Source of the DNA: Bacteroidales bacterium
GTDB lineage: Bacteria > Bacteroidota > Bacteroidia > Bacteroidales > G3-4614
Assembly: GCA_017935575.1 (NCBI GenBank)
Contig: JAGBHI010000050.1
Coordinates: 1,697-65,696 of the forward strand
DNA: 64,000 nt
Reading direction: 5' to 3'
Shown: positions 49,965 to 64,000 of the stretch, one piece after another
Layout of the letters: every line of letters begins with the position of its first letter
Position numbering within the stretch: position 1 is the stretch's first letter
The notes under the pieces: generated by a model
The model's input: the letters and a program-made list of their open reading frames with translations, nothing else
What the model was told of the DNA's origin: nothing
The model's database searches: none
Program-made: the position numbers and the translations under genes

Positions 49965-50492
49965 ATGAATATAAATGATTTTTTGAAATTAGCTGAAGAG
50001 CGTTACTCAATACGACGTTATGCCAATAAGGAAGTTCCGCGCGAAGTTCTTATGTCGGTTCTCGAATCGGCACGTATAGCGCCATCTGCCGTTAATTTTC
50101 AACCATGGAAATTTTATATAGCTTCAGGAGAAAAAGCAAAGAAAATGGTTTGTGAATCGTACAATAGAGATTGGATTGCAACAGCTCCTCTCTATATTAT
50201 CGCATGCGGAGACCATTCGGTAGCTTGGCATCGTTCTTTAGATAATAAAGACCATACAGATATAGATATTGCAATAGCCGTAGAACATATATGTTTAAGT
50301 GCAGCCGCTGCAGGATTAGGAACGTGTTGGGTTTGTAACTTTGATGCGGAGATGTTAAAGAGAGATATGCAACTTCCTGAAAATCTTGAGCCAATTGCAA
50401 TAATTCCAATAGGATATCCCGAAGGAGATGGCGGTGTGCGTCCTAAAAAACGTAAAACTATAGAAGAGATAGTTCAATGGTTAGAAGATTAA
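49965..50492 (+). CDS. Nitroreductase family protein
   Basis: RYSIRRY, APSAVNFQPW, GLGTCWV and IGYP motifs. Confidence 0.9.
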   Translation: MNINDFLKLAEERYSIRRYANKEVPREVLMSVLESARIAPSAVNFQPWKFYIASGEKAKKMVCESYNRDWIATAPLYIIACGDHSVAWHRSLDNKDHTDIDIAIAVEHICLSAAAAGLGTCWVCNFDAEMLKRDMQLPENLEPIAIIPIGYPEGDGGVRPKKRKTIEEIVQWLED

Positions 50493-50986
50493 GATATATA
50501 AAAAGGGCGCTTGCTATTATAATGGGTGCTGTAATATTTTCCTCATGTGGCGATACTTATTGCGATGAGAGTGGAAGTGGAATGCCCTTAGTTGGCGTAT
50601 ATGCAATGGGAGTTCCTCCTATTGAGGCTCAAATGGATTCTGTAACTGTTTATGGAGTGGGGCAGGTGACAGATTCTATTTTATATAATAATGTATCAGG
50701 TATTTCCTCTTTTTATACCCCTTTAAATATAATGAAGGATAGTGTAAAATATGTTATTCAATATGAAAGTAAACTTGTAGGAGAGACTGCAAAACGAGAT
50801 ACGTTAACTTATGTGTATCGTAAACAATTAACTTTTGAGAAACAAGAGTGTGGAGCGACATATGCTTTTATTATTGATAAATTTTCATATACAACACATT
50901 CGTTGGTATATGCAGAGCTTGTAACTCCCGAAGTGGATAATCTTTCATCACAAACGGTAAAAATATATTATGCGACAAAAAATTAG
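50477..50986 (+). CDS. Hypothetical lipoprotein (DUF6452-like)
   Basis: Lipobox FSSC; DTLTYVY...FEKQECG motif. Confidence 0.55.
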   Translation: MVRRLRYIKRALAIIMGAVIFSSCGDTYCDESGSGMPLVGVYAMGVPPIEAQMDSVTVYGVGQVTDSILYNNVSGISSFYTPLNIMKDSVKYVIQYESKLVGETAKRDTLTYVYRKQLTFEKQECGATYAFIIDKFSYTTHSLVYAELVTPEVDNLSSQTVKIYYATKN

Positions 50987-51686
50987 AATATTATTAATAT
51001 TGTTTGTGATGCTTCCTTTGACAATAGAGGCAAAGAAGAGCATTATTGTAACCGAACAAGGAGATACCGTAAAATATCTTCACCCCAAATATAATGGAAT
51101 AACAATAGGCGCCGATTTACTATCGCCCATAGCTAATTTGGTTGGACAAAAATACGGTAATTACGAATTGAGCATTGATGCTGCATTTTATAATAGATTT
51201 TTCCCTGTGTATGAATTCGGAGTTTCATATGCCGATTATACGCCAGATGGTTCAAATTATACCTATAAATTATATCCCTCATTTTATAATAGGGTAGGTT
51301 TGAACTATAATATAATCTATAATAAAAATGTTCCCGGAATATTTTATGTGGGTTTGAGATATGGATTTTCATTTGCAAAATATGAACTTACAAATATATC
51401 AGTATCATCACCATATTGGGAAGTAGAGCAATCAGGGTTGTCAATTCCAAAATCAACCTCTGTAGCCCATTGGGGAGAGTTATTATTGGGCTTGAGAGTT
51501 AAGTTATACAAAGGATTGATGATGGGTTGGGCTGTGCGTTGCAAATTTGTTTTTGCCGATTCTCAGAAAGGAGATGCAAGACAGTGGATTGTGCCGGGAT
51601 TTGGTAAAAGAAACAGTCCTTTAGGAGTCTCGTTTACCATTAATTACAGATTTGCTCCAAAACAAAAATTAAATATTAGATTATGA
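50970..51686 (+). CDS. Outer-membrane beta-barrel protein (DUF6048-like)
   Basis: Signal peptide; alternating aromatic beta-strands; IVPGFG; C-terminal INYRF. Confidence 0.55.
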   Translation: MRQKIRILLILFVMLPLTIEAKKSIIVTEQGDTVKYLHPKYNGITIGADLLSPIANLVGQKYGNYELSIDAAFYNRFFPVYEFGVSYADYTPDGSNYTYKLYPSFYNRVGLNYNIIYNKNVPGIFYVGLRYGFSFAKYELTNISVSSPYWEVEQSGLSIPKSTSVAHWGELLLGLRVKLYKGLMMGWAVRCKFVFADSQKGDARQWIVPGFGKRNSPLGVSFTINYRFAPKQKLNIRL

Positions 51687-52551: not shown

Positions 52552-52588
52552 AAGAGGTATTTAGATGATTATCAGATACCTCTTTTTT
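52552..52588 (+). terminator. Intrinsic terminator
   Basis: AAGAGGTATTT...AGATACCTCTT plus T-run. Confidence 0.65.
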
Positions 52589-52693: not shown

Positions 52694-52701
52694 TACTTTT
52701 G
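52694..52701 (+). promoter_or_regulatory. -7 promoter element of the nuo/atp cluster
   Basis: TACTTTTG, ~130 nt upstream of nuoA. Confidence 0.5.
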
Positions 52702-52828: not shown

Positions 52829-53182
52829 ATGAGCAATCTATCATTATTAGTAGTTGTCTTCCTTACGGGAATTTCGCTTGTGGCTGCAGCTATTGCTATG
52901 GCAAAGTTGTTAGCACCACGAACTTTTAATCCGCAAAAGGGAGAACCTTATGAGTGCGGTATTCCTACTCGAGGAGGTTCATGGATGCAATTCAGAGTAG
53001 GATATTATCTGTTTGCTATCCTTTTCTTGATGTTTGATGTTGAAACAGTATTTTTGTTTCCATGGGCTGTTTTAGTTAGAGATTTAGGTGCTTCAGCATT
53101 AGTTAGTGTCTCATTCTTTTTTGGAGTACTTGTTTTAGGTTTAGCTTACGCTTGGAAGAAAGGAGCATTGGAATGGAAGTAA
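52829..53182 (+). CDS. nuoA: NADH-quinone oxidoreductase subunit A
   Basis: PYECG, FLMFDVE and AWKKGALEW motifs. Confidence 0.95.
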   Translation: MSNLSLLVVVFLTGISLVAAAIAMAKLLAPRTFNPQKGEPYECGIPTRGGSWMQFRVGYYLFAILFLMFDVETVFLFPWAVLVRDLGASALVSVSFFFGVLVLGLAYAWKKGALEWK

Positions 53183-53760
53183 AAGTTGATTTGAAGTCGA
53201 TGAAGCATGAGAACTTCAAAGATAATGAATATATTGAGCAATTAGTAAAAGAGTTGCGAGAAGGAGGAACAAATGTAATAGTGGGAGTCCTTGATGATAT
53301 GATAAATTGGGGACGCTCAAACTCTCTATGGCCGTTGACCTTTGCCACCAGTTGTTGCGGAATAGAGTTTATGTCAGTAGGTGCCGCGTCCAATGATATG
53401 GCACGATTTGGGTTCGAGGTAACCCGTGCCAGCCCGCGTCAAGCTGACTTTATAATGGTGGCAGGAACTATCGTTCACAAAATGGCTCCGGTTTTGAAGC
53501 GTTTATACGACCAAATGGCATCGCCAAAATATGTAATAGCAGTAGGAGGCTGTGCCGTTTCGGGAGGACCATTCAAAAACTCATATCATGTAGTAAAAGG
53601 AGTTAATGAGATAATCCCCGTTGATGTATATATCCCCGGTTGTCCTCCACGTCCCGAGGCTATGCTTTACGGAATGATGCAGTTACAAAGAAAAGTAAAA
53701 GTTGAGCGATTCTTTGGAGATGTTAATAAAAAAGAGAAAAGACCTGAACAAGAAAAATAG
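53173..53760 (+). CDS. nuoB: NADH-quinone oxidoreductase subunit B
   Basis: [15 protein letters not shown] and [10 protein letters not shown] motifs. Confidence 0.95.
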
Positions 53761-53765
53761 TATCT

Positions 53766-55388
53766 ATGTCAAACATACAAGATAAAATAAAAGCATTAGT
53801 GCCTGAGGTAACCGTTGAAGAAAACGGTCTTTCAATGGTGGTTGTTCCATCAGAAAAAATGCCTCAAGTAGCAGCCTATTTAAGTGAAAAGGAGTCTTTT
53901 GATTCATTAGTTGCCTTAATCGGAAACGATTGGGGAGAATCGCTCGGAGTTGTATATATAATAGACTCTACAAAAACAGGAGAGAGAGTTGTGCTTAAAA
54001 CATCAACTACCGATAAAGAGAATCCTATGTTACATAGCGTAGCAGGAATTTGGAAATCGGCAGATTTGAATGAGCGCGAAGTTTATGATTTTTACGGAAT
54101 ACGTTTTATCGGACACCCCGATATGAGACGTATTTTCTTGCGTGAAGATTGGAAGGGGTATCCTCTAAGAAAAGATTATGATGCATCACCCGAAGCAAAT
54201 CCTGTTCCTGTAACAAACGAGTATAATGCAGATACTACAATATCGTTGCGACAACAACTCGACGGAACTATTGTAGAGGAAGAGAGAACAATTTTTGCAC
54301 CTGAAGATTATGTTGTAAATATAGGTCCTCAACACCCTGCAACGCACGGAGTAATGCGTTTCCGTACAGCTATAGAGGGAGAGACAATCAAGAAGATAGA
54401 TCCCATATGTGGATATATACACCGTGGAGTTGAAAAATTGGCAGAGGGATTAACATATCCTCAAACACTTCACTTTACCGACCGTCTTGATTATTTATCA
54501 GCACATCAAAATCGTCATGCATTATGTATGTGTATTGAGGAGGCAATGGGAATTGAAGTTCCGGAAAGAGCTAAATACATACGTACCATCATGGACGAGT
54601 TGTCAAGAATAGGTTCTCACCTTCTTTTGTATTCAACTCTTTGTATGGACTTAGGTTCAATCACAGCCTTTATATATGGTTTCCGTGATAGAGATAAAGT
54701 ACTTGATATCTTTGACGATACTTGTGGTGGTCGTCTTATAATGAACTACAACAAAATTGGAGGAGTTATGGCAGATATTCACCCCGATTTTGTTACAAAA
54801 GTTAAGCAATTCATCAAATATATGCCTAAAGGATTAGAGGAGTATCACGCACTCTTCTCTGGCAATATTATTGCTCGTAATCGTATGGAAGGTGTTGGAG
54901 TATTATCTCGTGAGGACGCTATAAATTATGGAATTTTTGGTCCTACAGGACGTGCTTCAGGTTGGGCTAATGACGTTCGTAAATTAGAACCATACGGAGT
55001 ATATGATAAAGTTGATTTTGAACAAGTTGTAATGACTGAAGGAGATACATACGCTCGTTATATGATAAGATTGAAAGAGATAGAGCAATCAATGCATATC
55101 ATTGAGCAACTTATTGATAATATCCCAGAAGGTGATTATGCTGTAAAAACCAAACCAATAATAAAATTACCCGAAGGAAACTTCTTCAAACGAGTTGAAG
55201 GTTCTCGTGGTGCGTTTGGAGTATATATTGAAAGTAAAGGAGATAAAACTCCGTACCGTATGAAATTTGTAACTCAAGGTTTGAACCTTATAGGTGCTGT
55301 TGATCATATTACTCGTGATCAAAAAATTGCAGACCTTATAGCAATTGGAGGTTCTCTTGACTATGTTATACCTGATATTGATAGATAA
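53766..55388 (+). CDS. nuoCD: Fused NADH-quinone oxidoreductase subunit C/D
   Basis: EREVYDFYG...GYPLRKD (C) followed by [18 protein letters not shown] and PDIDR (D). Confidence 0.93.
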
Positions 55389-55408
55389 AAAAAGAAAAAT
55401 ATTACATT

Positions 55409-56485
55409 ATGTTTGATTTTTCAGCCATAACAATTTGGATAGACCAACTGTTACGTAGCGTAATGGCTCCGTGGGCAGTAGTATTAGTAGAAGGCGTTAT
55501 AATAGGCGTGGTTCTATTACTTCTTTATGCTTTAATAGCATTGGCATTAATATATGCCGAGCGTAAAATTTGTGCATTTTTCCAATGTCGTTACGGACCA
55601 AATCGTGTAGGTCCCTTAGGTTTGTTACAACCTATAGCCGATATGTTAAAAATGTTGATAAAGGAGATTATATCGGTAGATAAGAGCGATAAATTCTTAT
55701 ACGGATTAGCTCCATTCCTTGTAATCCTTTCATCAATGCTTACCTTTGGTTGTATGCCATTCGGAAACGGTTTGTTAACTCTTGATTTTAATATAGGAGT
55801 ATTCTTCATAATGGCAGTATCATCAATAGGAGTATTGGGAATATTGCTTGCAGGTTGGTCAAGTAACAACAAATTTACACTTATTGGTGCAATGCGAAGC
55901 GGAGCTCAAATGATAAGTTATGAGTTGTCAATAGGATTGTCAATATTATCAGTAGTTGTATATGCAGGAACAATGCAAACATCGCAAATAATTGCAGCAC
56001 AAGAGAATGCATGGTTCATATTTACAGGACACATTCCTATGTGGATTGCATTTATCATATACTTGATAGCAGGAACAGCCGAGACTAACCGTGGACCCTT
56101 TGACCTTCCCGAAGCAGAGTCTGAGTTGACAGCAGGATACCATACAGAGTATTCAGGAATGCACTTCGGATTCTACTATCTTGCAGAGTATCTTAATATG
56201 TTTATTGTATCAGGAATTGCATCATTGCTATTCTTGGGAGGGTGGATGCCTCTTCATATTCCAGGTTGGGAAGCATTCAATAATGTAATGAACTATATAC
56301 CATCAGTAATATGGTTCTTCGGAAAAACTGCAATTATAATGTTTATAATAATGTGGTTTAAATGGACATTCCCACGTTTGAGAATTGACCAATTGATAAA
56401 GTTTGAGTGGAAATATCTCTTGCCCATAGGTTTATTCAATTTGTTATTGGTAACAATAATGGTTGTTATGGGCTGGCACTTTTAA
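55409..56485 (+). CDS. nuoH: NADH-quinone oxidoreductase subunit H
   Basis: [24 protein letters not shown] and FPRLRIDQ motifs. Confidence 0.96.
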
Positions 56486-56488
56486 TAG

Positions 56489-58024
<1,536 letters not shown>

Positions 58025-58035
58025 TAAAAACAACA

Positions 58036-58269
58036 ATGAAACTCCAAATAATATCAACCGATGGTATAATCTTTGAAGGAGAGGCAACAAAAGTGACTCT
58101 CCCCGGAACAGTAGGACCGTTTACTGTTTTGGAGAACCATGCATCTATACTTTCAACATTAACAAAAGGAGAGTTGGAGTATGAGAGTAATGGTATAGTT
58201 GAGACTGTACAAATAAAAGGAGGATTTGTTGATGTAAATAATAATCAGGTATCAGTATGCCTAAGTTAA
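58036..58269 (+). CDS. atpC: F1 epsilon subunit (N-terminal domain only)
   Basis: LPGTVGPFTVLENHA and GGFVDV motifs; 77 aa. Confidence 0.9.
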   Translation: MKLQIISTDGIIFEGEATKVTLPGTVGPFTVLENHASILSTLTKGELEYESNGIVETVQIKGGFVDVNNNQVSVCLS

Positions 58270-58274
58270 GCAAT

Positions 58275-59339
58275 ATGATATTTAGAAGGTACATATTAGT
58301 ATTAGCAATGTTGTTGTCAATATCATTTACAACAGCAACAAAGGCTTCTGCTCACTCAGAAGAGGAGGGAGGATTAAATGTAAAAGAATTAATCTTCCAT
58401 CACCTTTTAGATTCTTACGAGTGGGAGCTACCTTGTACCCATGTAAAAATACCATTGCCAATAATAGTTCGTGATTATCAAGGTGAATGGCATCTTTTCA
58501 GTTCCTCACGTTTAGCGCATGGTGAGGAGTATGAAGGATTTAAAATAACTCATCATGGCGACAATTCAGGCAAAGTTGTAGGCATAAATGCAGAAGGAGA
58601 AGAGTATCGTCCATTAGATTTTTCGTTAACAAAGAATGTTACAGAGATAATGTTAGCGGCAATTTTGATGCTTCTAATATTCCTTCCAATGGCGCGATGG
58701 TATAAGAAAAATCCATATAAGGCTCCACGTAAATTCTTTGGAGGAGTAGAACTATTGATAGAGATGATATACGGAGAAGTTATTAAACCTATATTAGGAA
58801 AAGATGCAAAGAAATTTGCTCCATATCTTTTAACCGTATTTTTCTTCATCTTTATAATTAACTTATTAGGAATGATAACTGTATTCCCCGGAGGAGCCAA
58901 CTTGTCGGGAAATATAGCAGTAACTATGGTGTTGGCATTAATGACATTCTTGGTAATAAACATATTCGGAACAAAACACTATTGGAAAGACCTTATATGG
59001 CCCGAAGTTCCAATGTTTATGAAGTGTCCAATACCACTTATGCCGGTAATTGAGATATTTGGAGCATTAACAAAACCTATGGCATTGATGATTCGTTTGT
59101 TTGCCAATATGATGGGCGGACATATGATAACTCTTGTATTGGTATGTCTCATATTTATATTCTCAGCATTCGGTTTGGCAGTGCAAAGCGGAACAGCGGT
59201 GTTTTCAGTAGCATTTGCGCTATTTATGGGAGTATTGCACTTGCTTATATGTTTAATTCAAGCATATGTATTTACTATGCTGTCAACCATATTTATAGGA
59301 TTGGCACAAATACACGAACATAAAGAAGAGAAAAAATAG
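58275..59339 (+). CDS. atpB: Fo subunit a
   Basis: HHLLDSYEW, DFSLTKNV, IRLFANM and IQAYVFTML motifs. Confidence 0.95.
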   Translation: MIFRRYILVLAMLLSISFTTATKASAHSEEEGGLNVKELIFHHLLDSYEWELPCTHVKIPLPIIVRDYQGEWHLFSSSRLAHGEEYEGFKITHHGDNSGKVVGINAEGEEYRPLDFSLTKNVTEIMLAAILMLLIFLPMARWYKKNPYKAPRKFFGGVELLIEMIYGEVIKPILGKDAKKFAPYLLTVFFFIFIINLLGMITVFPGGANLSGNIAVTMVLALMTFLVINIFGTKHYWKDLIWPEVPMFMKCPIPLMPVIEIFGALTKPMALMIRLFANMMGGHMITLVLVCLIFIFSAFGLAVQSGTAVFSVAFALFMGVLHLLICLIQAYVFTMLSTIFIGLAQIHEHKEEKK

Positions 59340-59365
59340 AAAACAATAAATAGTATTTATCATAA

Positions 59366-59632
<267 letters not shown>

Positions 59633-59642
59633 TATAATTCAA

Positions 59643-60140
59643 ATGGAACTGTTTAAACCCGAACTTGGTCTTTCATTTTGGCTATTGGTCGTATTTGTTT
59701 TGCTCTTTATAGTAACAGCCAAGTATGTTTGGCCTGCAATTGTAAAGAGTGTAGATGAACGCGCTGACCTTATAGACAAAGGAGTGGGTTATGCACAAGA
59801 GGCTAAAAAGCAACTTGAAAATGCAACAGAGAATGCTCAACAACTATTAGTTGATGCACAGCGTCAACAAATGGAGATTCTAAGAGAGGCCACTCAAATG
59901 AAAAACCGAATAATAGAAGAGGCTCGCAGTGCAGCAACCGCAGAAGCAAAAAAAGTAATGGATGCTGCCGCAATCTCAATAGAGCAAGCCAGAAAGGCCT
60001 CAGAAGAGCAGTTCCGTGCCGAAGTTAGCGGTTTTGCATTGCAGATAGCCGAGAAGCTTGTGCGCAAGGAGCTGTCCGATGACAAAAGTCAGAAGGAGAT
60101 TATTGAAAAGATGTTAGAACAGTTGGAGAAACAAAATTAA
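59643..60140 (+). CDS. atpF: Fo subunit b
   Basis: MELFKPELGLSFW TM segment, KYVWPAI..ER, coiled coil. Confidence 0.92.
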   Translation: MELFKPELGLSFWLLVVFVLLFIVTAKYVWPAIVKSVDERADLIDKGVGYAQEAKKQLENATENAQQLLVDAQRQQMEILREATQMKNRIIEEARSAATAEAKKVMDAAAISIEQARKASEEQFRAEVSGFALQIAEKLVRKELSDDKSQKEIIEKMLEQLEKQN

Positions 60141-60148
60141 ATTAAAAT

Positions 60149-60697
60149 ATGAGTGAAGGAGTAATAGCAGGGAGATATGCCACAGCACTATACAAATATT
60201 GTGCCGAGCATGGAGTAGCCACTACGTTGTATAAAACAGCGGAGGAGGTTGAAAAAGCCTTTATCTCAACACCTGAGCTACGAAAGACTCTCATAAATCC
60301 GGTTGTTCCAGCAAAAGACAAAATTTCCATAATGATGACCGTAGGCGGTAAAAACGCCGACAAATATTTTGAAAACTTTGTACGTCTTGTAGTTGATAAA
60401 AAACGTGAAGAGTATATGCGTGAAATATTCTTGAAGTATTCACAAATATATCGTAAAAAAAACAACATATCATTAGTTGAAGTAACAACTGCTGTTGAGA
60501 TTGACGAGAATATGTTGAAAAAGATAACATCAATCATATCAAGTCGAACAGAAAGTAAAGTTGAATTAAAATATAAGATAGACCTTGCTATAATAGGAGG
60601 ATTTGTCTTAAAAATAGACTCTCAACAATTAGATGCATCAATTGACAGAGAGTTAAAGAATTTGCGTTTAAAATTAGTAAACAGCAACAAAGTATGA
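60149..60697 (+). CDS. atpH: F1 delta subunit
   Basis: IAGRYATAL and IIGGFVL...LDASI motifs. Confidence 0.92.
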
Positions 60698-62265
60698 TAA
60701 AACCGAGTGAAGTATCAGATATCTTAAAGCGTCAATTAGAAGAGGTTGACAGCCGTATCAATTTTGAAGAGGTGGGTACTGTCTTAAGTGTAGGAGACGG
60801 AGTAGCACATGTCTTCGGATTGGATAATGTACACGCGAGTGAACTTGTAGAGTTTGAAAACGGAGTACGCGGAGTGGCTATGAACCTTGAAGATAGTAAT
60901 GTTGGTGTTATTTTGATGGGTGATACTGCAAAAGTAGAAGAGAATATGACTGTACGTCGTACAGGTCAGATAGCATCAATACAAGTTGGAGAAGGATTAT
61001 TAGGCAGGGTTATAAATACCTTAGGAGAGCCAATTGATGGAAAAGGAGCAATAGAAGGAGAACTGATACCTATGCCACTTGACCGCAAAGCTCCCGGAGT
61101 AATTTATCGTCAACCCGTAAATGAACCTTTACAAACAGGAATTAAGGCAGTAGATGCCATGATACCTATTGGACGAGGACAACGTGAGTTGATTATTGGA
61201 GACCGTCAAACAGGAAAAACAACAATTGCCGTTGATACAATAATTAACCAACGTAAAAACTATGAGGCAGGAGACCCTGTATATTGTATATATGTGGCGA
61301 TAGGACAAAAAGCTTCGTCGGTAGCTGCATTAGTAAATACATTAAAGGAGCATGGAGCAATGGAATATACCATTGTACTTGCTGCAAATGCCTCAGATCC
61401 TGCATCAATGAGATATTATGCCCCATTTGCTGGAGCTGCAATTGGAGAATATTTCCGCGACTCAGGACGCCATGCCTTAGTAGTATATGACGACTTGTCA
61501 AAACAAGCAGTATCATATCGTGAGATATCGTTGATTCTTCGTCGTCCTTCAGGACGTGAAGCATATCCCGGAGATATCTTCTATCTACATTCACGTTTAT
61601 TAGAGCGTGCAGCTAAAATTATTGATAACGAAGAGGTTGTAAAAACAATGAACGACGTTCCTGAATCATTGCGTCCAATGTTGAAGGGGGGAGGTTCATT
61701 AACAGCCCTTCCTGTAATTGAGACTCAAGCAGGAGACGTTTCAGCATATATTCCAACAAACGTAATTTCAATTACCGACGGACAAATATTCCTTGAAACA
61801 AACCTATTCCACCAAGGACAACGTCCGGCTATCAACGTGGGAATATCAGTTTCACGTGTAGGAGGAAATGCTCAAGTTAAAGCAATGAAAAAAATTGCAG
61901 GAACACTTAAAATTGATCAAGCACAATATCGCGAGTTGGAAGCATTTACAAAATTCGGTGGCGATATTGACCCTGTAACAGCAATGGTAATTGATAAAGG
62001 TCGTAAAAATAGCCGTATATTGGTTCAACCTCAATATTCTCCAATGCCTGTAGGTGAGGAGATAGCAATAATATATTGTGGAATTAAAGGTCTATTAAAA
62101 GGAATTGAAATTGACAGAATAAAAGAGTTTGAAGATTCTTTCCTTGACCTTTTAAGAAACAAATATAAAGCAGAGGTTCTTGATAAATTGCAAGTAGGTA
62201 AATTAGACGAAAATATAGAGGCTAAATTGCGCGAAGCAGCCGAAAGTGTTTCAGCAAGATTTTAA
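60694..62265 (+). CDS. atpA: F1 alpha subunit
   Basis: [15 protein letters not shown] and [10 protein letters not shown] motifs. Confidence 0.97.
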
Positions 62266-62275
62266 GTAAAAGAAG

Positions 62276-63151
62276 ATGGCAACAATAAGGGAGATAAAAG
62301 GAAGAATAACTTCAACAAAGTCATCGCAGAAGATAACAGGTGCGATGAAGATGATAGCCACTGCCAAATTACGTAAGGCAGAGGGTGCTCTTCGTCAGAT
62401 GAACCCATATCGAAATCAGTTGAGTTCAGCCATACAGCATCTTCTCGGCTCTGATGGAGATTATCCATCACCCCTTACACAAATTCGTCAAGTATCTCAT
62501 TTTGCATTTGTAGTAGTAGGTTCAGAAGAGGGATTGTGTGGAGCATACAATATTTATCTCTTTAAGAAACTATTGGAGAGAATATCTTACGTTCAAAAAA
62601 CTTACGGAGAAGAGTGTAAAATAACTCTATATCCCATAGGACGAAAAATGACAGGAATACTCTCAAAAATGCCAGAAGTAGAGGTACTAAAATCAGAATA
62701 TTTAACAGTAAAAAGTGATGCAATAGTAATAAGCGAGTTTACTGATGGTATAGTATCAAAATTTTTATCAAAGGAGTATGATGAAGTTGAGATAATATAT
62801 CCAAGATTTAAATCAATGGCATCACAACCTGTTGAAACCCGAACATTATTACCAATTGATTCCTCACGTCTTTCAGCAGAAGGGGCAGAGGAACATCAAA
62901 ATCCATATATATACGAACCTTCACGTAGCGATATATTTCTATCGTTATTACCATTATTTGTACGAGTGGATATGCAGGAGGCAATATATAGTGGAAGAGC
63001 TTCAGAACAAGCAGCAAGGGTAATGGCAATGCAATCGGCAAGCGACAATGCCAAGAAGTTGCTTGAGGAGTTGCAATTAGATTACAACAAGTTGCGTCAA
63101 CAGGGAATTACAAATGAATTATTAGATATAGTAGGAGGATCAATGCATTAA
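62276..63151 (+). CDS. atpG: F1 gamma subunit
   Basis: KITGAMKMIA, GLCGAYN and RQQGITNEL motifs. Confidence 0.95.
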   Translation: MATIREIKGRITSTKSSQKITGAMKMIATAKLRKAEGALRQMNPYRNQLSSAIQHLLGSDGDYPSPLTQIRQVSHFAFVVVGSEEGLCGAYNIYLFKKLLERISYVQKTYGEECKITLYPIGRKMTGILSKMPEVEVLKSEYLTVKSDAIVISEFTDGIVSKFLSKEYDEVEIIYPRFKSMASQPVETRTLLPIDSSRLSAEGAEEHQNPYIYEPSRSDIFLSLLPLFVRVDMQEAIYSGRASEQAARVMAMQSASDNAKKLLEELQLDYNKLRQQGITNELLDIVGGSMH

Positions 63152-63161
63152 AAAATAGATT

Positions 63162-63608
63162 ATGAAAAGTTTAGTAGAGTACATAATATCTATTTTCAAG
63201 GGTCTGGGGACTCTTTTGACAGGAATGAGAATAACATTAAAAGAGTTTTTCACACCCAAAGTAACACAATGTTATCCTGAGAACAGGGATACCTTGAAAA
63301 TAGCTGAGAGGTTTAGAGCAACACTTGTAATGGTAACCGATGAAAACGGAAATAACAAGTGTACTGCATGTGGTTTGTGTTCAATTAATTGTCCCAACCA
63401 AACAATTAAGATAACATCACACATGGAGGAGACAGAAGATGGAAAAAAGAAAAAGGTATTAGATGCATATCTATATGACTTAGGAAGTTGTACATTCTGT
63501 CAATTATGCGTTGAAGGTTGTCCCACAAAGGCAATTAAGTTTACAAATGATTTTGAGCAAGCAGTATTTACTCGTTCAAAACTTGTTAAGCAATTGAATA
63601 AAAAATAA
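63162..63608 (+). CDS. nuoI: NADH-quinone oxidoreductase subunit I (2x[4Fe-4S])
   Basis: VTQCYPE, CTACGLCSINCP and CTFCQLCVEGCP motifs. Confidence 0.93.
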   Translation: MKSLVEYIISIFKGLGTLLTGMRITLKEFFTPKVTQCYPENRDTLKIAERFRATLVMVTDENGNNKCTACGLCSINCPNQTIKITSHMEETEDGKKKKVLDAYLYDLGSCTFCQLCVEGCPTKAIKFTNDFEQAVFTRSKLVKQLNKK

Positions 63609-63622
63609 ATAACATATAACTT

Positions 63623-64000
63623 ATGGAAAATATAGGGAACGAGGTAATTTTTTACATCATTGCAGCAGTAATGTTAATATTCTCTGTAATGACCGTTACC
63701 ACAAAACATCTGTTACGTTCAGCAACATATTTGTTGTTCGTACTATTTGGTACAGCTGCACTATACTTCCAACTTGATTACCATTTTCTTGGAGCAGTAC
63801 AGGTTGCAGTTTATGCCGGAGGTATAGTGGTATTATTTGTCTTCTCAATCCTTTTGACACAAGGTTTGGGGCAAAACAAAGAGAAGATAAAGAGCAGTAA
63901 ATTAGTATTGGCGTTGTCTGCCGCAATTTTAGGAGCAGTTGTATGCGGATACTCATTGTTTACTCATATCTTTCCTGCATCACGTTATGCAATGGGAGAA
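63623..64000 (+). CDS. nuoJ: NADH-quinone oxidoreductase subunit J (runs off window end)
   Basis: Translated by hand: MENIGNEVIFYIIAAV...LLRSATYLLFVL...FLGAVQVAVYAGGIVVLFVFSILLT. Confidence 0.9.
   Translation, partial: MENIGNEVIFYIIAAVMLIFSVMTVTTKHLLRSATYLLFVLFGTAALYFQLDYHFLGAVQVAVYAGGIVVLFVFSILLTQGLGQNKEKIKSSKLVLALSAAILGAVVCGYSLFTHIFPASRYAMGE

Follow-up and report, generated by a model that had tools for sequence, protein, structure and literature searches.

Organization of the nested nuo/atp gene cluster

Complex I and ATP synthase stand at either end of the chemiosmotic circuit, and to our knowledge their genes almost always lie apart. We analyzed a 64,000-nucleotide stretch of DNA from a Bacteroidales bacterium (hereafter the window; assembly GCA_017935575.1, contig JAGBHI010000050.1, positions 1,697 to 65,696) in which a complete set of ATP synthase genes lies between nuoH and nuoI of a complex I (nuo) cluster. 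The host genome is a draft of 99 contigs (2.03 Mb, 88.75% complete), and the window sits in a contig of 78 kb. Because this genome is incomplete, the "not found" results reported for it below are provisional. The 14 consecutive plus-strand open reading frames (ORFs) from position 52829 to the end of the window were scanned against Pfam and NCBIfam. The assignments bear out the gene order that an earlier note had read from the letters of this DNA, namely nuoA-B-CD-H, then atpD-C-B-E-F-H-A-G, then nuoI-J; likewise, the sequence coordinates agree with the two gaps that it had given, 30 nt between nuoH and atpD (junction 1) and 10 nt between atpG and nuoI (junction 2). Beyond the window, which ends within nuoJ, ORFs and Pfam matches on the same contig continue the series through nuoJ-K-L-M-N, and a Zn-peptidase gene follows 155 nt later. 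The nested cluster thus comprises 18 genes and spans about 16.5 kb (Table 1).

Eleven complex I subunits (nuoA, B, C, D, H, I, J, K, L, M and N) are present, with nuoC and nuoD joined in one ORF. No family match to NuoF was found in the cluster or elsewhere in the genome; NuoE and NuoG were not searched for separately. The nuoI of the window is the ortholog of the NuoI found after NuoH in 16 other families. On the ATP synthase side, all eight bacterial F1Fo subunits (alpha, beta, gamma, delta, epsilon, a, b and c) are encoded by eight consecutive ORFs, which match PF00006/PF00306, PF00231, PF00213, PF02823, PF00119, PF00430 and PF00137. Equivalog models for atpD, atpA, atpG, atpH, atpB, atpE and atpF all scored above their cut-offs. 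The true start of atpF probably lies downstream of the annotated TTG, as the alignments of relatives begin at residue 3 to 17.

Escherichia coli has the canonical 14-subunit nuo operon and an atpIBEFHAGDC operon. For both complexes, the core subunits have homologs in the window, but there NuoE, F and G are missing from the cluster, nuoC is fused to nuoD, and the two clusters are interleaved. Moreover, atpD-atpC lead the atp block here, whereas they close it in E. coli. An atpI-sized ORF was not noticed in the cluster's ORF list, although the atpI family itself was not searched.

Table 1. Features of the nested nuo/atp cluster and its upstream boundary (positions are those of the window).
Feature	Position	Strand	Evidence or remark
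Terminator-like hairpin, 8-bp arms then T-run	52553..52588	+	After upstream glycosyltransferase gene; read from sequence; putative 5' boundary of the unit
Promoter-like TAnnTTTG	52694..52701	+	135 nt upstream of nuoA ATG
nuoA	52829..53182	+	PF00507, E 3.7e-36
nuoB	53152..53760	+	NF011391, 383.4 bits (cut-off 283)
nuoC-nuoD fusion	53766..55388	+	PF00329 + PF00346; single 540-aa ORF
nuoH	55409..56485	+	PF00146, E 5.9e-120
Junction 1, nuoH-atpD spacer, 30 nt	56486..56515	+	Unstructured, without promoter motif
atpD (F1 beta)	56516..58024	+	TIGR01039, 763.6 bits (cut-off 462.85)
atpC (F1 epsilon), 77 aa	58036..58269	+	PF02823 only
atpB (Fo a), 360 aa	58257..59339	+	PF00119, E 1.3e-53
atpE (Fo c), proton-type ion site	59381..59632	+	PF00137; alignment
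atpF (Fo b)	59595..60140	+	PF00430
atpH (F1 delta)	60149..60697	+	PF00213, E 1.7e-43
atpA (F1 alpha)	60694..62265	+	TIGR00962, 748.7 bits
atpG (F1 gamma)	62276..63151	+	PF00231, E 7e-81
Junction 2, atpG-nuoI spacer, 10 nt	63152..63161	+	Spacer read from sequence; fold no more stable than shuffles
nuoI	63162..63608	+	TIGR01971, E 2e-30, 104.8 bits (below 113.05 cut-off)
nuoJ, cut by window end	63623..64000	+	PF00499

Distribution of the nested arrangement

NuoI was searched in 40 relatives, and the flanks of the matches were typed by tblastn. Within the genus of the window genome, NuoI was found in 10 of 11 other genomes, one of these loci being cut at a contig end, and the order atpA-atpG-nuoI was present in all nine with informative flanks; the single genome without a NuoI match is 84% complete. 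One genome of family f21 shared the nested order in this survey. By contrast, all 16 loci from 16 other families carried nuoCD-nuoH-nuoI.

The order was sampled more broadly with AtpG, which was searched in 401 genomes from more than 148 families; its adjacency to nuoI was checked in the best 30 of the 401. Among the matches listed, close AtpG relatives formed a discrete group at 44-53% identity, with the next best at about 41%. Within the best 30, nuoI lay directly downstream of atpG in every one of the 19 genomes of families f62, f21, f79, f135, f104 and f105; in the 11 genomes of families f131, f132, f18, f30, f20, f91 and f112, it lay without exception on another contig or 17-26 kb from atpG. 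Separate clusters were therefore found in 20 other families of the order, counting the 16 from the flank survey together with f131, f132, f91 and f112. Regions of 19.5 kb were also fetched and compared by tblastn with all 18 proteins. The complete 18-gene nested order was present in all nine nested loci so examined, three of them from single-contig genomes of 2.9-3.4 Mb, and families f131 and f20 had intact, separate nuoA-N and atpDCBEFHAG clusters.

A scan of named genome records with an AtpG alignment yielded 578 relatives, of which the best 80 were kept. In 79 of these loci nuoI followed atpG, mostly with nuoJ-K-L thereafter; the remaining locus stops 145 nt past atpG. The nested records include Coprobacter secundus 177, Duncaniella muris DSM 103720, Barnesiella, Muribaculum, Paramuribaculum, Sangeribacter, Candidatus (Ca.) Homeothermus and Muribaculaceae, as well as a Candidatus Caccoplasma sp. 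at 98% identity, other Ca. Caccoplasma and two complete chromosomes. Loci whose titles read Muribaculaceae, Duncaniella, Muribaculum or Ca. Homeothermus share the atpG-nuoI junction of the window. Outside the order, where 138 genomes of the phylum were sampled, NuoI was near atpG in none of the 38 genomes in which it was found (E <=1e-18).

Bacteroidales in which nuoABCDHIJKLMN and atpDCBEFHAG stand apart match the window in the genes of each cluster and in their order. They also share its fused nuoCD, its short epsilon subunit and the ion-site residues of its c subunit. They differ in where the atp block stands and, for five of seven genomes, in having a V-type ATPase (see below).

The earlier note had allowed that its claim would fall if the layout proved common and already described. 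It is both. The layout is clade-wide, and F-type ATP synthase genes inside the complex I cluster have been reported for the S24-7 group ('Ca. Homeothermaceae', now Muribaculaceae) by Ormerod et al. 2016 (Microbiome 4:36, PMC4936053). According to that report, complex I in 30 S24-7 genomes has 11 of 14 subunits and is without NuoEFG, and one S24-7 genome lacks both complex I and the F-type ATP synthase. Both the nesting and the presence of Nqr reported there agree with what is seen in the window genome. The window genome belongs to another genus and family (Ca. Caccoplasma) and has much shorter spacers. The relevant main-text passages of PMC4936053 give neither the insertion point, nor the distribution outside the family, nor a mechanism. 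A literature search found nothing further on this arrangement besides that report.

Origin of the nested loci

A maximum-likelihood tree of NuoH and NuoI was built from 29 loci, 10 of them nested. The nested loci form one clade with a support of 0.995, and their sister group is non-nested. The most parsimonious account of this monophyly is that the insertion happened once, before these families diverged, and was then passed on vertically. The whole F1Fo operon would have moved into the nuoH-nuoI spacer in an ancestor shared by a set of gut Bacteroidales families, whose descendants include Ca. Caccoplasma, Muribaculaceae, Barnesiella and Coprobacter, and the arrangement would have been retained since. 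The relocated operon presumably kept the usual Bacteroidales order, atpD-C-B-E-F-H-A-G, and its recipient would have been the 11-subunit, NuoEFG-less complex I cluster.

As an empty-site comparison, the genes flanking free-standing atp clusters in three non-nested genomes were searched for in the window genome; only scattered orthologs on different contigs were recovered. The atpG-nuoI spacer measures 10-20 nt in Caccoplasma and 15-130 nt elsewhere; in this genus, the spacers have shrunk to 10-30 nt.

Junctions and predicted transcription

All 17 gaps within the 18-gene unit are 41 nt or shorter, four of them being overlaps, and the two junctions are no longer than the other 15. Predicted RNA folds over both junctions were no more stable than those of shuffled sequences (z = +0.86 each). 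No direct or inverted repeat pairing the two junctions was found; the repeat search yielded only short families at chance level. We also looked for TAnnTTTG, which we take to be the Bacteroidota -7 promoter consensus. It was absent from the plus strand in the 775 nt before atpD and from position 59724 to nuoI (about 3.4 kb). The folding, motif and repeat scans thus uphold the earlier note's statement that neither junction has a hairpin, a TAnnTTTG motif or a repeat.

The motif does occur before nuoA in the window, at -125 of nuoA in a distant member of the genus (L047), and a second time in the spacer after nuoN. Terminator-like hairpins followed by T-runs lie after the upstream glycosyltransferase gene and downstream of nuoN; the former escaped our simple terminator scan because its loop exceeds 8 nt. 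That scan and a sigma-70-type promoter scan gave counts at or below shuffle expectation, although the sigma-70 consensus differs from that of Bacteroidota. Both junctions are seamless, and the sequence likely fits a single transcription unit.

Public RNA runs were also consulted. Those found matched a small share of the sampled words (0.09-0.22), and their Logan contigs were compared at 90% likeness. Two metatranscriptome runs contained short contigs from relatives, 90-97% alike, over nuoB, nuoCD, atpD, atpF, atpA and nuoI-J. One such contig (X2) starts 5 nt short of the nuoH end and reaches into atpD, and another (X3) begins 5 nt before nuoI; none spans either junction by at least 31 nt on both sides. 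As the contigs show no transcript ends and DNA carry-over is possible in these runs, they speak neither for nor against co-transcription.

Some relatives have a different second junction. Defining a strong stem-loop as one with a minimum free energy (MFE) of -13 kcal/mol or lower, we found that 11 of the 79 named-record loci, of the Coprobacter/Barnesiella type, have an atpG-nuoI spacer of 73-130 nt with a strong GC-rich stem-loop (MFE -13.6 to -39 kcal/mol), in some cases followed by a T-rich tail. Stem-loops were recorded at L053, L057, L062, L063, L067, L068, L070, L071, L098, L104 and L107, and also at L036, L037, L038 and L040. No strong stem-loop was seen in Caccoplasma, and the atpG-nuoI spacers of the Muribaculaceae type are short and unstructured. 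TAnnTTTG occurs in just one of the 79 spacers. The stem-loop may be an old atp terminator that has been kept as an attenuator or as an element of mRNA stability.

Type of ATP synthase and bioenergetic context

Three features of the ATP synthase were scrutinized. First, the epsilon subunit consists solely of the N-terminal beta-sandwich, its NCBIfam matches spanning about positions 2-76 of 130-position models. Its score against TIGR01216 (63.9 bits) falls just under the cut-off of 67.25 because the protein is truncated. In bacterial F1Fo enzymes, the C-terminal helices of epsilon inhibit ATP hydrolysis. The short form is common to non-nested relatives (aligned over 1-76 of 77 residues) and is thus a trait of the wider group. 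Second, the alternate F1Fo enzyme (N-ATPase) was rejected as an identity for this cluster, since the alt_F1F0 models scored far below their cut-offs for beta (541 vs. 752 bits), alpha (558.7 vs. 750.5), gamma (88.3 vs. 282) and c (35.6 vs. 130.85). Third, the ion specificity of the c subunit was considered. The Na+ signature in this subunit is a Gln in helix 1, a Ser or Thr right after the helix-2 carboxylate Glu, and a Tyr one turn later. In the protein from the window, the helix-2 Glu is conserved and flanked by Ile and Gly-Val, with a Phe one turn on and an Ile at the helix-1 position, and the same residues were present in all 13 compared sequences, non-nested relatives included. A Na+-coupled ATP synthase was rejected because the Na+-liganding set is absent from the alignment; proton coupling is therefore likely.

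The earlier note had advised looking for a second atp or V-type operon. No second rotary ATPase was found in the window genome, where the V-type A model matches only the atpD and atpA of the window. Nor was a V-type A subunit found in any of 16 genomes of the nested clade, all at least 94% complete, while five of seven non-nested relatives have one (f131, 2/2; f20, 2/2; f7, 1/1; f18, 0/1; f30, 0/1). As the compared genomes are related to each other, this contrast is to be taken as a pattern and not as a test.

The window genome has NqrB, PFOR and a fumarate reductase-type flavoprotein, and RnfD, cytochrome bd and H+-PPase were not found in it. The Nqr genes (by the NqrB match) and the PFOR gene lie at most 10 kb apart on another contig (G000:C68:30246-40005). 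Complex I enzymes without NuoEFG are presumed to oxidize reduced ferredoxin or flavodoxin.

Neighboring genes

A DUF6452-DUF6048 pair (window positions 50477-51686) closely precedes the cluster, flanked by genes for a nitroreductase-family protein and a family-2 glycosyltransferase (GT2); the DUF6048 and GT2 genes are syntenic in the distant genus member L047. Downstream on the contig, past nuoN and the Zn-peptidase gene, is a minus-strand gene for a Crp/Fnr-type regulator with a cNMP-binding domain and HTH_Crp_2 (L002:6969-7724), about 0.9 kb past the end of the nuo/atp cluster. A glycogen-metabolism cluster follows (L002:8691-13164), comprising a GDE_N/GDE_C debranching enzyme, a GT4/starch-synthase-like glycosyltransferase and GH57.

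Interpretation of the nested cluster

We favor, as the probable explanation, a genuine and vertically inherited composite operon that arose by a single ancestral insertion and whose one transcript co-expresses the pump and the ATP synthase. This transcript, of about 16.5 kb, would start at a promoter upstream of nuoA and end after nuoN. It would supply both the Nuo-like complex, which is the sole candidate proton pump found, and the sole rotary ATPase, a proton-type F1Fo enzyme. The Nuo-like complex would probably receive electrons from ferredoxin or flavodoxin reduced by PFOR and would probably pass them on to menaquinone and fumarate reductase, with Nqr handling NADH and sodium. What the data establish are the identities of the genes, junctions without a seam, conservation throughout the clade, a monophyletic set of nested loci and no V-type ATPase in the nested genomes sampled; the single transcript, the electron donor, proton coupling and any selective benefit of co-expression are inferred.

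Several observations weigh against this explanation. The placement of promoters and terminators depends on short consensus motifs, and TAnnTTTG occurs 14 times over the cluster against a shuffle expectation of 8.6 (sd 2.8); because this count is near chance, the motif evidence is weak. A strict motif lies within 350 nt upstream of nuoA in only 7 of the 10 nested loci, and promoters could lie inside the coding sequence of nuoH or atpG. In the lineages that have them, the atpG-nuoI stem-loops could terminate or attenuate transcription. Finally, lacking a V-type ATPase is not a mark of nesting alone, as the non-nested f18 and f30 genomes have none either.

The strongest rival is a neutral relic, in which an accidental insertion put the atp operon into a spacer that tolerated it and the blocks are transcribed or regulated separately from promoters within the preceding coding sequences, so that the nesting has no function. 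The insertion falls exactly in a spacer, both operons keep their ancestral internal order, the stem-loops described above resemble a retained atp terminator, and other Bacteroidales do well with separate clusters. However, no informative genome among those sampled from seven families departs from the order, the Caccoplasma spacers have been compacted, and the promoter motif is near neither junction. We consider a neutral relic possible but doubtful.

A stronger claim than the composite operon can also be framed, namely that the 18 genes form one obligatory unit of expression and assembly. Here, a ferredoxin-fed pump and the sole ATP synthase would constitute a self-contained proton circuit whose parts may be put together next to each other in the membrane and acquired or lost jointly, and this circuit would have allowed the loss of the V-type ATPase. 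The S24-7 genome described as lacking both complexes can be cited for the part about joint gain and loss (PMC4936053). Taken as a whole, we regard this claim as unlikely.

From one shared transcript, the earlier note had gone on to fixed stoichiometry, physical coupling or ATP-driven reverse electron transport as possible reasons; its reading is supported in part, and these three are speculative. Coupling at the level of the proteins, by which nesting would aid co-translational assembly or a supercomplex of the Nuo-like complex with F1Fo, strikes us as very unlikely. The nesting itself and its long conservation are what speak for it, whereas all of the subunits are of ordinary length and match the subunits of non-nested relatives over their full length, and neither the ORF list nor Pfam reveals an extra gene or linker domain in the cluster.

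Similarly, we give very little credence to ATP-driven reverse electron flow, in which F1Fo would hydrolyze fermentative ATP and the resulting proton gradient would power the reduction of ferredoxin or flavodoxin by a Nuo-like complex running in reverse. An epsilon of 77 residues, devoid of the inhibitory C-terminal helices, and the failure to find another rotary ATPase in the window genome would suit such a scheme, but non-nested relatives have the short epsilon as well. Furthermore, with PFOR as a source of low-potential electrons and fumarate reductase as an acceptor lying downhill, operation in the forward direction is simpler to assume.

An assembly artefact, that is, a chimeric contig joining two separate operons, might be feared in a 99-contig draft, and the earlier note had named misassembly as grounds for giving up the arrangement; it can effectively be dismissed, as the same junctions recur in independently assembled genomes from 28 or more other species, including three single-contig genomes and complete genome or chromosome records, and contigs of another run (X4, kind unknown) cross both junctions at 95-97% identity.

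That the layout was noted in 2016 limits its weight as a discovery: the window locus is a further genus and family with an arrangement already known from S24-7. The wider distribution, the absence of the V-type ATPase and the proton-type c subunit are new. What this work adds is modest: a distribution that covers seven families and goes back to one origin, junctions that are extremely compact in Caccoplasma, and no V-type ATPase in the nested genomes that were sampled.

Muribaculaceae are a dominant family of the mouse gut. Together with Barnesiella, Coprobacter and Caccoplasma relatives, they belong to an abundant group of gut bacteria that has kept the genes for its pump and its turbine interleaved over family-level divergence, and the nuo/atp junction is a clean synteny marker for the clade. 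The nested clade is a natural setting in which to ask whether expressing or assembling pump and turbine together confers an advantage, and it may help to reveal the role of the enigmatic NuoEFG-less complex I in anaerobes.

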